This document shows, piece by piece, positions 8,211 to 61,100 of a stretch of 64,000 bases of DNA. The translations under genes were made by a program, and so were the position numbers. Every line of letters starts with the position of its first letter. The stretch's first letter is position 1. This DNA comes from Escherichia phage vB_EcoM_NBG2, in the sequence record NC_054925.1. One strand, given 5' to 3'. The notes below the pieces were generated by a model. The model was not told where the DNA came from, did not search any database, and was given only the letters and a program-made list of their open reading frames with translations.

Positions 8211-9629
8211 TTATGGATAGGTATAGATGATACCAGTTTCTAAAGCAGTTTTATGAATGATGTATCCATTACGCGATTCTTGGACATCAACTTCTGGATA
8301 GTCTTTAATCATCTTCTGAAGAGTGTAACGATGCAGGTAGTATTTACTATCTGGGTCGTCAGTTTTCCAATCTTTACCTTCTTCGGTCATTTTTTGGATT
8401 TCATCCATAACCCACCAACCGCACCAGATATAAGCTGAAGTACGATGTGGAAGAGGATGAACATAAGGTAGTTCACCTTCTGGTTCCGGAGCAACTTTAT
8501 CAGTCACTTGAACTTGACCTGTGGCTTTAACTGTTTTACTATCATAGTCAGTTGCTGTAACGACAGCAGTAACTTCAATAGTTTGACTTCCAATAGATGA
8601 GGTATCAACAGTATATACGTTAGTTGACCCTTCCACAGGAGAAGAATCTTTCTTCCATGAGTAAGTAATTTGTGCTGCTTCAGGTGCGCCATTAACATTA
8701 GCAGTAAATGTAGCCGAAGCATCTTGCTGAACATTAATAGAAGGAGGAGTCAATGTAACCTGTGGATTCATTGTCTTCTTATTAACTGTCAATGATACTT
8801 CATTGGAAGTAACTTCCTTTTCATTATAATTTTCTGCAGTTACTTGGGCTACGCATTTAATTCTTTTTACTCCACTTGTAGTTGGAGTATAGTTAAATGT
8901 AGAGTTAGTTTCTCCACCAACTTGTGAATCATCTACATACCACTGATACGTAGCAGACGCTCCGTCAGGTTGAGAAGCTAATGCAGCAGTAAATTGAACC
9001 GGGGTTCCAATTACTCCAGCAGCAGGACTAGCAGGAGTTACTGCCAAGGTAGTTGTCTGTGTCTTTTTATTAACTGTCAATGATACTTCATTGGAAGTAA
9101 CGCTCAGTGCATCATAATCTGTCGCAGTTACTTGAGCTACACACTTAATTTTTTTAACTCCGCTTGTAGTAGGAGTATAATTGAATGTAGCAGAAGTTGC
9201 TTCGCTCACAGGAGAACCGTCAACGTACCATTGATACGTAGCAGATGCGCCCGATGGCTGTGAAGCTAAGGCAGCAGTAAATTCAACGGCTGTTCCGATT
9301 ACTCCTTCTGGAGGACTATTAGGAGTTACAGCTAAAGTAGTTGTCTGTGTTTTATTTTGAACTGTAATAGTTGTACTAATTTCAGCTGTTTCAGCTTCAG
9401 AATCAGGAATAGTATTTGTTGCAACTACCTTAATAGTCTTTTGACCAGCAGGTCCTTTTAATACATAATTAAAAGTTGCTTCAGCTCCATCTTGTGGAAC
9501 ATCATCTACAGTCCAAGCATATGTAATAGGTCCATCTCCAGTTTGACCACTGGGTGTAGCAGTAAACTGCTTAGTTTCATCAATAACCCCTGTCGGTGTT
9601 TTAGGAGTTATATCAACTGTAAAAGCCAT
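8211..9629 (-). CDS. hoc: head outer capsid protein Hoc, 472 aa, with an extra Ig-like domain
   Basis: Ig-like repeats plus C-terminal capsid-binding region; T4 Hoc recalled as 376 aa; contains an internal near-identical 96-aa duplication. Confidence 0.85.
   Translation of the reverse strand: MAFTVDITPKTPTGVIDETKQFTATPSGQTGDGPITYAWTVDDVPQDGAEATFNYVLKGPAGQKTIKVVATNTIPDSEAETAEISTTITVQNKTQTTTLAVTPNSPPEGVIGTAVEFTAALASQPSGASATYQWYVDGSPVSEATSATFNYTPTTSGVKKIKCVAQVTATDYDALSVTSNEVSLTVNKKTQTTTLAVTPASPAAGVIGTPVQFTAALASQPDGASATYQWYVDDSQVGGETNSTFNYTPTTSGVKRIKCVAQVTAENYNEKEVTSNEVSLTVNKKTMNPQVTLTPPSINVQQDASATFTANVNGAPEAAQITYSWKKDSSPVEGSTNVYTVDTSSIGSQTIEVTAVVTATDYDSKTVKATGQVQVTDKVAPEPEGELPYVHPLPHRTSAYIWCGWWVMDEIQKMTEEGKDWKTDDPDSKYYLHRYTLQKMIKDYPEVDVQESRNGYIIHKTALETGIIYTYP
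8778..9353 (-). repeat. tandem direct duplication (2 x 288 bp) inside hoc encoding two near-identical Ig-like domains
   Basis: Same 35-mer ttattaactgtcaatgatacttcattggaagtaac at about 8780 and 9068; protein residues about 93-188 and 189-284 nearly identical (unit boundaries approximate). Confidence 0.85.
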
Positions 9630-56354: not shown

Positions 56355-59300
56355 ATGGCTACTTTAAAACAAATACAATTTAAAAGAAGCAAAACTGCAG
56401 GAGCACGTCCTGCCGCTTCAGTATTAGCCGAAGGTGAATTGGCTATAAACTTAAAAGACCGCGTACTTTTTACTAAAGACGACCAAGGAAATATCATTGA
56501 TCTTGGTTTTGCTAAGGGCGGTAGCATTGACGGGAATGTTATTCATATAGGAAACTATAATCAAACTGGTGATTATACTTTAAATGGCGCTTTCACTCAG
56601 ACAGGTAATTTTAATTTAACTGGTATTGCTCGAGTAACTCGCGATATTATTGCCGCCGGGCAGATTATGACTGAGGGCGGAGAACTTATTACAAAAAGTT
56701 CAGGTACAGCGCATGTTCGTTTTTTCGATGGCAATAACCGCGAACGCGGAATAATTTATGCCCCGGCTAATGATGGATTAACTACACAAGTACTTAATAT
56801 CAGGGTTCAAGACTACGCCGCTGGTGATGAAAGCACCTATGCATTTTCAGGCAGTGGCCTATTTACTTCACCTGAAGTATCAGCATGGAAATCTATTTCG
56901 TCTCCACAAATTCTGACCGATAAAGTTATTACAGATGGGAAGAAGACGGGCGATTATGATATATCTTCATTAGCAAATAATAATTCTGACACAGATAAAA
57001 ACTATTTGCGCATTGTACGTACCGACCCAGCGGCCGCAATGCTCCATGAAATTTGTGAAAATAACGGCATCAGTTGGTATTCTGGTTCAACCCCTACTGA
57101 TTACATGTTGTCATTTTCTTATTCCGGTGGGCTTCAAGCAGGCCATTCAATTGCAGTAGGTATGGAATCAAGTCCTATGACATATTCAGCCTTAGGTAAA
57201 GGTTCTATTGCTATTGGCGATAATGATACCGGATTTAAATGGCATCAGGACGGATATTTTCATGCAGTAAACAACGGAACAAGAACTTTCATTTACGGTC
57301 CTGCGGAAACACAAAGCCTTAGAAAAATGGTTATGGGTTATTCTCCGGATGGGATTCTTATGACAACGCCACCGACAGAAAACTATGCATTAGCCACTGT
57401 TGTTACTTACCATGATAATAACGCGTATGGTGACGGTCAAACTCTTTTAGGATATTATCAAGGCGGTAACTATCATCACTATTTCCGCGGTAAGGGTACC
57501 ACAAACATTAATACTCATGGCGGTTTGTTAGTTACTCCAGGCAATATTGACGTTATTGGTGGTTCGGTTAATATTGATGGTAGAAATAATAATTCAATTT
57601 TAATGTTTAAAGGCTATACCATGGGTCAAAGCTCCGTTGATAACATGTATATAGCTGTTTGGGGAAATACTTTTACTAATCCAAGTGAAGGCACCCGTAA
57701 AAATGTCATGGAAATTTCTGATGATATTGGATGGATGCATTATATTCAACGAACAACTGCGGGTAAAATCGAATCGGTTATAAATGGCACCCAGATTGTT
57801 AATGAAAACTTTACAGTAGTAAAAAATGCTACATTTGACGGTACAATCAGCGCAGCCGGTGAAATCGCGACAAATGCTGTAAATGGTCTTCGCATTTGGA
57901 ACGCAGATTATGGAGCTATTTTTAGACGTTCAGAAGGCAGTCTTCATATTATTCCAACTGCTTATGGTGAAGGTAAACATGGCGATATCGGTCCACTTCG
58001 CCCGTTTAGTATGGCTTTAGATACCGGTAAAGTTACTATTCCAGATTTACAATCAAGTTACAATACGTTCGCTGCGAACGGCTATATTAAATTTGTTGGT
58101 CATGGCGCTGGCGCTGGTGGTTATGATATTCAATATGTTCAAGCGGCTCCTATTTTCCAGGAAATCGATGATGATGCTGTAAACAAATATTATCCGATTG
58201 TTAAGCAAAAATACCTTCAAGGTAAAGCAGTTTGGTCTTTAGGTACTGAAATTAATTCAGGTACATTCGTGATACACCATATCAAAGAAGATGGAACACA
58301 GGGCCATACATCAAGATTTAATGCTGATGGTACAGTTAACTTCCCGGATAACGTTCTGGTCGGCGGTGATATTAACATGAAAGGCTTGATGACTTTTGAC
58401 GCCGGACGTTTAGGATCACGAGATTATTTTAAATTTAACCATTGGGGTGATAGCAATAACGCTCGTGATAACATCATCCAGTTAGAAGATAGTCAAGGCG
58501 CCCATTTTTCCACTGAACGTACTTTAGCGACAGGTGCAATTAAAACTCGTTTCTTTGGCGAAACATTCACTGATGGTACATTATACTTAAATCAGATGAA
58601 TAATAGCTCTGAACGATTCTCTATCAACAATTGGGGAAATTCAGAAGTTGGTCGCGCGGCAGTATTGGAAGTCGGCGATTCAAAAGGTTATCACTTCTAT
58701 GCTGAACGCAGGACAGATAACAGTTTGATGTTTGATGTTGCTGGTTCTTTGACCGTGCATGGACCTAGCGGAATAACCATCAAAAACTCAACTGGTGCTC
58801 GCCATATCTGGTTTAGAGATGATAGCGATGCAGAAAAGGCTGTTATCTGGGCTACAGATGAGGGTATTTTACATATACGAAATAATCATGGGGGTTCATT
58901 TAGTCATCACTTCCAGGGTGCAATGATTAAAGCGGGAGAGCAAGTTCCTTATAATAGTGAATACGCTCTTATCCGTGGTGATGTTTTTGGTGGTGCTTGG
59001 GATGACTGGCGCAACCGTCCTGCTGGTATTCTCTTAGATTGTCAGGATTCACATACCCGAGCATATTCAATTTGGAAAGCAACTCATTGGGGTGTTGATC
59101 ATCTTGCGGCAATGGGTGTTCATGCTGTCGGTGGTCAAGCTACCGTAATGATGCATATGAACAAAGGCGGCTGGTATTCATGGACTGCAAATGGTGATTT
59201 CATATCTAGTGCGTCGGTTTACTGTAACGATGTTTATATTCGTTCCGACCGTCGTCTGAAAATTAACGTTGAAGACTACGAAGAAAATGCGGTAGATAAG

Positions 59301-59597
59301 GTAAATAAACTAAAAGTTAAAACCTACGATAAAGTTAAGTCTCTTTCTGACCGAGAAGTCATCGCACATGAGATTGGTATTATCGCGCAGGATTTACAAG
59401 AAATTTTACCGGAAGCTGTTAGCACTTCTAATGTCGGATCTCTTGATAACCCAGAAGAGATTTTAACAATTTCTAACTCTACAGTGAATGCTCTTTTAAT
59501 TAAGGCTATTCAGGAAATGAGTGAAGAAATTAAAGAATTGAAAACGCCTCTCTTTACTAAAATTGCTCGCAAAATTAGTAAATATTTTAAATTCTAA
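56355..59597 (+). CDS. 37: long tail fibre distal subunit gp37 with C-terminal intramolecular chaperone-like domain
   Basis: 1080 aa; C-terminal about 117 aa begins ...YIRSDRRLKINVEDYEENAV..., resembling self-cleaving chaperone domains of other phage fibres. Confidence 0.9.
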   Translation: MATLKQIQFKRSKTAGARPAASVLAEGELAINLKDRVLFTKDDQGNIIDLGFAKGGSIDGNVIHIGNYNQTGDYTLNGAFTQTGNFNLTGIARVTRDIIAAGQIMTEGGELITKSSGTAHVRFFDGNNRERGIIYAPANDGLTTQVLNIRVQDYAAGDESTYAFSGSGLFTSPEVSAWKSISSPQILTDKVITDGKKTGDYDISSLANNNSDTDKNYLRIVRTDPAAAMLHEICENNGISWYSGSTPTDYMLSFSYSGGLQAGHSIAVGMESSPMTYSALGKGSIAIGDNDTGFKWHQDGYFHAVNNGTRTFIYGPAETQSLRKMVMGYSPDGILMTTPPTENYALATVVTYHDNNAYGDGQTLLGYYQGGNYHHYFRGKGTTNINTHGGLLVTPGNIDVIGGSVNIDGRNNNSILMFKGYTMGQSSVDNMYIAVWGNTFTNPSEGTRKNVMEISDDIGWMHYIQRTTAGKIESVINGTQIVNENFTVVKNATFDGTISAAGEIATNAVNGLRIWNADYGAIFRRSEGSLHIIPTAYGEGKHGDIGPLRPFSMALDTGKVTIPDLQSSYNTFAANGYIKFVGHGAGAGGYDIQYVQAAPIFQEIDDDAVNKYYPIVKQKYLQGKAVWSLGTEINSGTFVIHHIKEDGTQGHTSRFNADGTVNFPDNVLVGGDINMKGLMTFDAGRLGSRDYFKFNHWGDSNNARDNIIQLEDSQGAHFSTERTLATGAIKTRFFGETFTDGTLYLNQMNNSSERFSINNWGNSEVGRAAVLEVGDSKGYHFYAERRTDNSLMFDVAGSLTVHGPSGITIKNSTGARHIWFRDDSDAEKAVIWATDEGILHIRNNHGGSFSHHFQGAMIKAGEQVPYNSEYALIRGDVFGGAWDDWRNRPAGILLDCQDSHTRAYSIWKATHWGVDHLAAMGVHAVGGQATVMMHMNKGGWYSWTANGDFISSASVYCNDVYIRSDRRLKINVEDYEENAVDKVNKLKVKTYDKVKSLSDREVIAHEIGIIAQDLQEILPEAVSTSNVGSLDNPEEILTISNSTVNALLIKAIQEMSEEIKELKTPLFTKIARKISKYFKF

Positions 59598-59603
59598 CAA
59601 CAA

Positions 59604-59621
59604 GGGGGAAATGCCCCCTTT
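59604..59621 (+). terminator. weak hairpin after gene 37
   Basis: GGGGG-AAAUG-CCCCC followed by only UUU. Confidence 0.4.
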
Positions 59622-59633
59622 GGAGTATAAATT

Positions 59634-60413
59634 ATGGCAGTAGTTGGAGTTCCTGGCTGGATTGGAAGTTCAGCCGTAAATGAAACGGGTCAGCGCTGGA
59701 TGAGTCAAGCAGCTGGTCAATTAAGATTGGGTGTTCCTTGCTGGATGAGTCAATTTGCAGGTCGCTCAAGAGAAATTATTCATACACTTGGAGCAGACCA
59801 TAACTTCAATGGTCAATGGTTCCGAGATAGATGTTTTGAGGCAGGTAGTACACCTATAGTGTTTAATATCACTGGAGATTTAGTATCATATTCTAAAGAT
59901 GTTCCTTTATTCTTCATGTACGGAGATACACCGAATGAATATGTTCAGTTGAATATACACGGCGTAACGATGTATGGACGTGGCGGTAATGGCGGTAGCA
60001 ATAGTCCTGGTTCAGCTGGAGGTCATTGTATTCAAAACGATATTGGTGGGAGACTAAGAATTAATAATGGCGGAGCTATTGCTGGAGGCGGCGGTGGCGG
60101 CGGCGGCGGCAACAGGGGTAGACTATCCTTTGGCGGCGGAGGCGGTCGTCCATTTGGCGCTGGTGGGTCTTCCTCTCATATGAGTGCTGGTGCAACCAGC
60201 GGCACTATTTACGCTCCGGGTGCAGGATCTGTCGGTGAGGGGTCTCTTAGTGCATATACAGGCGGGAATGGCGGTGAAGTTGGCTCCGCAGGAGGTAGAT
60301 GTAATACTCACGGTACCGGTACAGAATATGACGGCGGTGCTGCTGGTTATGCCGTCATAGGGTCTACACCGACATGGCAAAATGTTGGAGCAATATATGG
60401 TCCAAGAGTATAA
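59634..60413 (+). CDS. 38: tail fibre tip adhesin gp38 (T2/T6-type, glycine-rich motifs)
   Basis: 259 aa with several poly-Gly motifs separated by short variable segments; unlike the 183-aa T4 gp38 chaperone. Confidence 0.85.
60084..60110 (+). repeat. (GGN)9 codon tract inside gene 38
   Basis: ggaggcggcggtggcggcggcggcggc encoding nine consecutive Gly. Confidence 0.9.
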
Positions 60414-60443: not shown

Positions 60444-61100
60444 ATGGCAGCACCTAGAATATCATTTTCGCCCTCTGATATTCTATTTGGTGTTCTAGAT
60501 CGCTTGTTCAAAGATAATGCTACCGGGAAAGTTCTTGCTTCCCGGGTAGCTGTCGTAATTCTTTTGTTTATAATGGCGATTGTTTGGTATAGGGGAGATA
60601 GTTTCTTTGAGTACTATAAGCAATCAAAGTATGAAACATACAGTGAAATTATTGAAAAGGAAAGAACTGCACGCTTTGAATCTGTCGCCCTGGAACAACT
60701 CCAGATAGTTCATATATCATCTGAGGCAGACTTTAGTGCGGTGTATTCTTTCCGCCCTAAAAACTTAAACTATTTTGTTGATATTATAGCATATGAAGGA
60801 AAATTACCTTCAACAATAAGTGAAAAATCACTTGGAGGATATCCTGTTGATAAAACTATGGATGAATATACAGTTCATTTAAATGGACGTCATTATTATT
60901 CCAACTCAAAATTTGCTTTTTTACCAACTAAAAAGCCTACTCCCGAAATAAACTACATGTACAGTTGTCCATATTTTAATTTGGATAATATCTATGCTGG
61001 AACGATAACCATGTACTGGTATAGAAATGATCATATAAGTAATGACCGCCTTGAATCAATATGTGCTCAGGCGGCCAGAATATTAGGAAGGGCTAAATAA
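60444..61100 (+). CDS. t: holin T
   Basis: 218 aa; single N-terminal TM and large periplasmic domain; sequence recognised as T4 T. Confidence 0.95.
   Translation: MAAPRISFSPSDILFGVLDRLFKDNATGKVLASRVAVVILLFIMAIVWYRGDSFFEYYKQSKYETYSEIIEKERTARFESVALEQLQIVHISSEADFSAVYSFRPKNLNYFVDIIAYEGKLPSTISEKSLGGYPVDKTMDEYTVHLNGRHYYSNSKFAFLPTKKPTPEINYMYSCPYFNLDNIYAGTITMYWYRNDHISNDRLESICAQAARILGRAK

Follow-up and report, generated by a model that had tools for sequence, protein, structure and literature searches.

Gene 38 of Escherichia phage vB_EcoM_NBG2 encodes a predicted OmpA-type adhesin with a glycine tract of probably constrained length

Here we analysed a stretch of 64,000 nucleotides from the genome of Escherichia phage vB_EcoM_NBG2 (NC_054925.1), hereafter called the window, in which gene 38 carries a run of nine consecutive glycine codons, (GGN)9. 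Taking the results together, we consider it highly probable that this is the gene 38 of a Tequatrovirus coding for an OmpA-type adhesin, in which a polyglycine-II (PGII) tract of constrained length doubles as a crossover patch and changes its length through rare contractions only. As a gene it is an ordinary, already sequenced gp38 gene and already known, the protein having been deposited and the allele of its specificity domain having been characterised experimentally.

In the mechanism that we propose, gp38 would be a monomeric adhesin whose N-terminal domain caps the gp37 trimer and whose hypervariable segments (HVS1-4) would be displayed as loops from a beta-helix and a PGII 'sandwich' made of glycine-rich motifs (GRM), this set of loops leading most probably to binding of the outer-membrane protein OmpA. 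The (GGN)9 tract would encode the long central PGII helix (Gly151-158) and the residue that opens loop B (Gly159), and because it does so its length would be kept constant by purifying selection, while its third codon positions would drift freely or become homogenised towards GGC. A conserved G-rich tract amid variable sequence would also provide a homology patch, at which crossovers may swap the distal specificity cassette HVS2-4. Slippage or short-repeat deletion would take place at low frequency and yield contractions only, with the variants staying rare and offering no regular route to new host ranges.

Gene 38 product and layout of its specificity domain

Gene 38 lies between the gene for the distal fibre subunit and that for the holin, all of them on the same strand:

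56355..59597, + strand: gene 37, distal long-tail-fibre subunit of 1080 aa (Pfam Peptidase_S74 at aa 964-1022, and Gp34_trimer)
59634..60413 (stop codon included), + strand: gene 38, receptor-recognising adhesin gp38 of 259 aa (ORF from ATG to TAA, Pfam and PDB matches)
59634..59759, + strand: N-terminal attachment domain of gp38, aa 1-42 (Pfam Gp38_N; Trp9, Trp22 and Trp37 present)
60444..61100, + strand: gene t, holin (Pfam Phage_holin_T, 1.5e-118), the canonical neighbour 3' of gene 38

The order gp35, gp36, gp37 (with S74), gp38 and holin t, with asiA-side genes coming next on the opposite strand, is the canonical T2/T6 arrangement, the C-terminus of gp37 being the S74 intramolecular chaperone and gp37 being the fibre that gp38 caps. 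With a Pfam cut-off of 25 bits for both families, gp38 matched GP38 (PF05268; 5.7e-70, 236 bits) and Gp38_N (PF21721; 9.4e-21, 74 bits), and in the PDB it matched the receptor-binding domain of PP01 gp38 (9v85, E = 2.2e-78) and S16 gp38 (6f45, E = 1.3e-53). Residues W9, W22 and W37 line up in the alignment with the Trp residues of the N-terminal domain through which S16 gp38 docks onto gp37 (PMC6851490). All the defining features of the T2/T6-type adhesin family that can be tested in a sequence are present, and the identification of gp38 as a receptor-recognising adhesin of this type, made in the original prediction, is borne out by the agreement of Pfam, PDB matches, alignments and Foldseek.

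The GC content amounts to 0.55-0.60 over the specificity domain vs about 0.30-0.40 in the surrounding region of the genome. Neither an antisense open reading frame at 60123..60380 (85 aa) nor another in the +2 frame at 60184..60360 (58 aa) matched any Pfam family, and we took both as by-products of the GC-rich glycine-coding stretch. The spacer between genes 37 and 38 (59604..59633) contains a GGGGG-AAATG-CCCCC hairpin (59604..59618) followed by GGAG (59622..59625), and a TATAAATT motif, similar to T4 late promoters, stands immediately 5' of the gene 38 ATG; a scan for promoters and terminators around gene 38 gave nothing exceeding the expectation from shuffled sequence, the spacer hairpin being called on the minus strand only. 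Far from this locus, a gene at 8211..9629 on the minus strand encodes a Hoc-like capsid decoration protein of 472 aa with PKD/Ig domains and contains a repeat at 8772..9365 (288-bp unit, 2.1 tandem copies, 79% matches, Tandem Repeats Finder score 743). We take T4 Hoc to be 376 aa long, and the Hoc-like protein encoded here presumably has one Ig-like domain more.

Alignments of 115 and of 44 homologues revealed five blocks of invariant glycine columns with variable, indel-bearing segments in between, and we named them following the scheme of five GRM and four HVS that Trojet et al. 2011 (PMC3157838) gave for the C-terminal half of gp38:

59976..59993, + strand: GRM1, aa 115-120, GRGGNG (G115, R116, G117, G118 and G120 invariant in 44 sequences)
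59994..60017, + strand: HVS1, aa 121-128, GSNSPGSA (variable, indel-bearing columns; boundaries inferred from conservation)
60018..60107, + strand: GRM2, aa 129-158, ending in the putative central PGII helix (many invariant columns; aligns to S16 151-158)
60084..60110, + strand: (GGN)9 tract, Gly151-Gly159, GGA GGC GGC GGT (GGC)5
60108..60131, + strand: HVS2 / loop B, aa 159-166, GNRGRLSF (sequence and length vary between allele classes)
60132..60167, + strand: GRM3, aa 167-178, second oligo-glycine tract (G167-G171, P173, G175 and G178 invariant)
60168..60260, + strand: HVS3, aa 179-209 (variable columns; same as in T4_ev240)
60261..60296, + strand: GRM4, aa 210-221 (G211, G213, G214 and G220 invariant)
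60297..60332, + strand: HVS4, aa 222-233 (variable columns; same as in T4_ev240)
60333..60410, + strand: GRM5 and conserved C-terminus, aa 234-259 (G238, A240, V241, P246, W248, G252, Y255 and G256 invariant)

The alternation of glycine-rich motifs and variable segments that had been claimed for this half of the protein is thus upheld by the homologues, and the four motifs quoted in support of it were found at aa 115-130 (59976..60023), 151-159 (60084..60110), 166-178 (60129..60167) and 208-221 (60255..60296). The first of them is genuine, but its start had been set at 59979, which is the Arg codon; the motif begins 3 nt earlier, at 59976.

The AF2 model of gp38, built with 44 homologues as input, had a mean pLDDT of 86. 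Foldseek related it to 9v85 (E = 2.6e-25, TM 0.87) and 6f45 (E = 7e-21, TM 0.78; both TM values normalised to the target), and no other significant neighbour was found in the PDB; the predicted fold is that of an attachment domain, a beta-helix and a PGII sandwich. The glycine-rich motifs of S16 gp38 form ten PGII helices in a three-layer sandwich, and its 'helix 3; 151-GGGGGGGG-158' is the long helix at the centre, in which the network of backbone hydrogen bonds is saturated (PMC6851490). Residues G151-G158 of the window match this S16 segment residue for residue, and G159 aligns with F159 of S16 and Y159 of PP01, the first residue of loop B / HVS2. Since the counterpart of its first eight glycines in S16 is the central PGII helix, the nine-glycine tract is best read as a piece of the structural core and not as an adjustable loop spacer. 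DSSP left residues 151-158 of the model without assignment, between strands 148-150 and 159-161, with residues 159-167 forming a short hairpin (strands 159-161 and 164-167 in HVS2), and homology with S16 suggests a PGII conformation for 151-158. Among 44 diverse gp38 proteins G152-G156 never vary and G157 hardly does. The glycine run ranges between 6 and 9 residues in the different allele classes, the shorter runs aligning without gaps (for example, eight glycines followed by Y, I or F), and the differences between classes are therefore substitutions at the ends of a scaffold of fixed length rather than indels.

Length and codon content of the nine-glycine tract

In the original prediction the (GGN)9 tract was a candidate for slippage that would alter loop spacing and host range. 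We compared an allele class comprising the window, one run assembly with the same protein and 11 named phage genomes (G2540-3, T4_ev240, IME340, JE01, Pu-Krd-SF1, HMD-9, RPN226, FL12, BF15, kvi and FL20). Exactly nine glycine codons were present in 12/12 compared genomes of this class. The third positions of the tract differed in almost every genome, and the longest perfect period-3 run measured only 5 nt in kvi and as much as 24-26 nt in G2540-3 and FL12, with (GGC)8 in the closest relatives vs (GGC)5 in the window. Every one of the best 15 full-length database matches was exactly 780 nt long, and the T6-like loci from IMG/VR and metagenomes had nine glycines in all those examined, the order of GGC and GGT varying among them. 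A repeat number that varies between close isolates, by which a contingency locus would be recognised, was thus observed neither in the 12/12 genomes of the class nor in any T6-like locus examined. A scan of genome contigs with the gp38 protein returned no confirmed relative, the viral contigs searched with the same protein yielded only 13 loci, and a degenerate DNA pattern covering both glycine tracts yielded only 5 metagenome and 2 viral loci with canonical lengths throughout, a sample well below population scale.

We also scored 235 distinct gp38 sequences for changes in length, including the members of 90% protein clusters so as to catch hidden +/-1 variants. Ten of the 235 were changed: six by contraction of the tract, namely by one glycine (P0156), two (P0198, P0200), three (P0106, P0165) or five (P0079), and four by deletion from the first to the second glycine tract with loss of HVS2 (P0023, P0027, P0031, P0118), GRM3 being the partner tract in these rare events. 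Tract expansions were found in none of the 235. In the DNA of the deletion variants GGN units had been lost in-frame. Most of these ten variants stem from assemblies of runs or metagenomes, and none of them from a named phage isolate, P0156 and P0118 being also found in NCBI records from E. coli assemblies; four of the changed sequences represent 90% clusters, all with one member. Cluster members of 257 or 258 aa were considered as further tract variants, and the ones inspected, except for P0156, had instead an N-terminus shorter by 2 aa or a Leu insertion in HVS3. It is unlikely that the deletion variants are collapses produced during assembly, the shared repeats being at most 26 nt long and below the assembler k-mers (k119 for the ENA contig; the k-mer of Logan assemblies is 31).

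Two of the contracted alleles lie on long phage contigs: the -1 allele, with eight glycines encoded by (GGC)7GGT, on one of 94.5 kb (L030 3001..3777; Logan ERR10879143), and the -5 allele, with four glycines, on one of 60.7 kb (L001 318..1079; Logan ERR689735). Given these contigs, part of the contracted alleles may belong to viable phages. In T6, deletions of GRM2, GRM3, GRM4, HVS1, HVS2 or HVS3 were not recoverable (Trojet et al. 2011, PMC3157838), and the gp38 variants with tract-to-tract deletions are therefore probably defective. The contig with the HVS2-deleted P0027 (Logan SRR30543803) carries a gp37 homologue of only 477 aa (L003 33..1466), the genome or its assembly thus having several internal deletions at the tail-fibre locus.

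At the DNA level, the tract (60084..60110) reads GGA GGC GGC GGT GGC GGC GGC GGC GGC. Tandem Repeats Finder reported it at 60087..60110 (period 3, 8 copies, 90% matches, score 41), as one of only two period-3 arrays within the 64-kb window, and the GenBank record of phage kvi annotates the same GGN tract as a repeat_region. GGC accounts for 7/9 codons in the tract vs 14/55 among the other glycine codons of the gene (binomial P = 0.0015), a uniformity of the DNA repeat beyond what the protein sequence demands. Over 12 genomes the third positions of the tract were C in 69%, T in 27%, A in 4% and G in 0%, vs T 46%, A 21%, C 21% and G 11% in the gene's other glycine codons; GGT and GGC predominate in the second glycine tract too. 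Diversity at four-fold sites was 0.39 in the tract against 0.21 at other four-fold sites (P = 0.012) and 0.24 at other glycine codons (P = 0.043; permutation), synonymous diversity being hence about 1.9 times that of the other four-fold sites. The closest genomes tended to differ from the window within glycine tracts: G2540-3 at nt 462 of the gene, inside the (GGN)9 tract, and at nt 500, inside the second glycine tract, these being its only 2 differences; run assembly SRR11808715 at nt 462 alone; and T4_ev240 inside the (GGN)9 tract with 3/11 differences, these three being synonymous. As a separate observation, the 5' edge of the tract (60080..60087) is GCTGGAGG, with one mismatch to the E. 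coli Chi octamer, and in RPN226 it is exactly GCTGGTGG; to our knowledge T-even recombination is independent of RecBCD and Chi, and this resemblance is probably irrelevant to it.

Judged from the sequences, the codon patterns fit slippage or gene conversion without a net change in length, translational selection, or both. In the latter case the abundant host tRNA-Gly(GCC) would decode both GGC and GGU, and runs of G prone to frameshifting would be avoided. Under this argument the GGC-rich and GGG-free codons of the tract would stem from translational selection and not from homogenisation by slippage or gene conversion, and the third-position frequencies in the tract as well as the prevalence of GGT and GGC in the second tract speak for it. 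Translational selection leaves unexplained, however, the raised synonymous turnover and the GGT positions, which change in nearly every genome, and we regard it as a real possibility that we nonetheless slightly doubt; the two processes are not mutually exclusive. A more elaborate model would make of the tract a length-locked coding microsatellite, in which slippage or gene conversion within the tract reshuffles and homogenises GGC and GGT, the resulting patch of high DNA identity channels crossovers to the border of GRM2 and HVS2, and occasional viable contractions, such as the alleles with eight and four glycines, re-shape loop B as a minor route to altered recognition of receptor loops. The higher synonymous turnover and the GGC excess would both follow from the reshuffling or homogenisation, but we think the model as a whole unlikely.

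Whether the tract works as a contingency-type microsatellite, slippage changing the number of glycines, the spacing of the loops and hence producing host-range variants, can be judged by placing these results side by side. The near-perfect trinucleotide repeat, with its five GGC in a row here and eight in the closest relatives, agrees with such a role, as do the in-frame losses of 1, 2, 3 and 5 glycine codons in public assemblies, the nearly doubled synonymous diversity of the tract and the excess of GGC, which homogenisation of the repeat by slippage or gene conversion would produce. Nevertheless, the count of nine persists throughout the class even with a perfect repeat of 24-26 nt, the set of 235 sequences contains no expansion and only rare contractions, for the most part in assemblies of runs or metagenomes, and the tract corresponds to the core PGII helix, with the differences between classes being substitutions in gap-free columns. 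Moreover, deletion of GRM2 is not viable in T6 (PMC3157838), and the documented changes of host range through gp38 are point mutations in HVS or exchanges of cassettes (PMC3157838; 10.64898/2026.04.02.716166). We found no link between length change and host range in the comparative data, and a contingency role of the tract appears to us very unlikely. The comparison of sequences favours instead that slippage or short-repeat deletion occurs at the tract at low frequency and that selection holds the count at nine. The proposal that slippage alters loop spacing and host range finds no support in these comparisons, given the constant count in 12/12 genomes, the core helix, the substitutions between classes, the rare contractions and the lack of expansions among the sequences scored. 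One of two observations named beforehand as speaking against it, constant length and variable segments that are already characterised, is also what we found: the variable segments are the same as those of the characterised OmpA allele of T4_ev240. The tract may stand as a small cautionary case, in that a trinucleotide repeat that catches the eye in a gene for host range would be a strictly length-constrained structural element and not a variation switch.

Recombination at the glycine tract

Gene 38 of IME340 differs from that of the window at a single position within nt 1-435 and at 33 positions within nt 436-780 (Fisher 1.7e-11). The maximum-chi-square breakpoint fell at nt 435-465 for IME340, JE01, Pu-Krd-SF1, RPN226, kvi and FL20, the tract being at nt 451-477 of the gene. 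In FL12 and BF15, whose breakpoint lay near nt 117-138, the mosaic was the reverse one: the 5' end diverges from the window and the 3' part resembles it. Such a jump in divergence could in principle be due to positive selection that accelerates evolution in the specificity domain 3' of GRM2, in the absence of recombination, and the position of the hypervariable segments and of all 9 amino acid differences from IME340 in the distal half would agree with selection of this kind. Synonymous differences from IME340 jump as well, however, from 3/150 codons upstream to 15/100 downstream (P = 2e-4), whereas the synonymous changes between the window and T4_ev240 are spread evenly (3 upstream, 3 in the tract and 3 downstream). 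The opposite mosaic of FL12 and BF15 is likewise at odds with selection alone, as is the fact that laboratory crosses resolve in the same region (PMC3157838; 10.64898/2026.04.02.716166), and we attach hardly any probability to this explanation. Because close relatives show no downstream excess of synonymous differences, the jump is attributable to recombination and not to local hypermutation or selection. A single acquisition of the distal half in the lineage of the window could explain several of these breakpoint comparisons, from which independent events are not countable.

Crossovers in the conserved GRMs were described by Tetart et al. 1998, as cited in PMC3157838, and were put to experimental use by Trojet et al. 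[quoted passage not shown] The role of recombination point that the original prediction also gave to the tract agrees with the breakpoints at nt 435-465, and it had already been proposed and used in experiments. Recombination at glycine motifs is thus a long-known idea, which the sequences support here, and the breakpoints add support from natural populations to the old model of exchange of specificity cassettes at conserved glycine motifs.

Two further observations concern exchange around gene 38. The gp37 coding sequence of G2540-3 has 2949 nt (L019 1516..4464) vs 1080 aa in the window, though their gp38 genes are 99.7% identical, which suggests independent exchange of fibre shaft and adhesin. 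The gene 38 of the Krischvirus phages kvi and FL20 (L028 and L029) has about 89% DNA identity to that of the window with only 2 amino acid differences in the first 150 codons, and this amounts to a cross-genus transfer of the adhesin gene between Krischvirus and Tequatrovirus.

Receptor prediction and comparison with known gp38 proteins

An exact look-up identified gp38 as AWM12019.1 / YP_010072261.1 of phage vB_EcoM_NBG2, a T4-like Tequatrovirus of 166,083 bp (MH243439) whose genome announcement contains no receptor data (Costa et al. 2018, PMC6025944). Its best DNA matches in the phage collection were vB_EcoM_G2540-3 (99.7%, 2 nt), T4_ev240 (98.6%) and IME340 (95.8%). The gp38 of T4_ev240 (LR597657.1, VUF56049.1), with 11 nt differences in the gene, differs by one amino acid only (T112A), being identical over aa 115-259 and having nine glycines too. 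The receptors of this phage, Escherichia phage T4_ev240 or EV240, are OmpA and LPS HepI according to RB-TnSeq, and its gp38 placed in the Tsx phage CM8 produced a complete switch to OmpA (2026 preprint, 10.64898/2026.04.02.716166). The genome length given there for EV240, 166,954 bp, agrees with that of LR597657.1. Owing to the identity with EV240 gp38 at aa 115-259 and to the closeness of FL12, which is OmpA-dependent, the gp38 of the window most probably binds OmpA. A single HVS substitution, Q206L in RB68, was able to switch the receptor (10.64898/2026.04.02.716166), although the window shares all its HVSs with EV240, and gp37, which differs between phages with the same gp38, could modulate host range. 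Annotating gene 38 as a gp38 adhesin and predicted OmpA binder would help in choosing or engineering phages for cocktails.

The gp38 proteins of FL12, FL20, FL18 and Ac3 belong to the same allele class as that of the window, with 259 aa and nine glycines, and FL12, FL20 and FL18 form an OmpA-dependent group of narrower host range (Lutz et al. 2025, PMC12032242). The differences from the window are distributed unequally along these proteins: FL12 has 5 at aa 115 or beyond and 15 before aa 115, where its N-terminal attachment domain is divergent, while FL20 and kvi are near-identical in the N-terminal part and have 16 differences in the distal part, and IME340 has its 9 differences in the distal half. 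T6 gp38, with 82% identity, shares the layout of GRMs and HVSs and the run of nine glycines, but its HVS2 is YYSPFPQMRLTF vs NRGRLSF in the window, HVS3 and HVS4 differ as well, and its receptor is Tsx and not OmpA (Trojet et al. 2011, PMC3157838). At a greater distance, the gp38 proteins of S16 (6F45) and PP01 (9V85) have the same three-domain architecture with a PGII sandwich. Their loops differ from those of the window and both bind OmpC, and in these two proteins the run of eight glycines gives way to an aromatic side chain at 159 (F159 in S16, Y159 in PP01), whereas the gp38 of the window carries at position 159 its ninth glycine.
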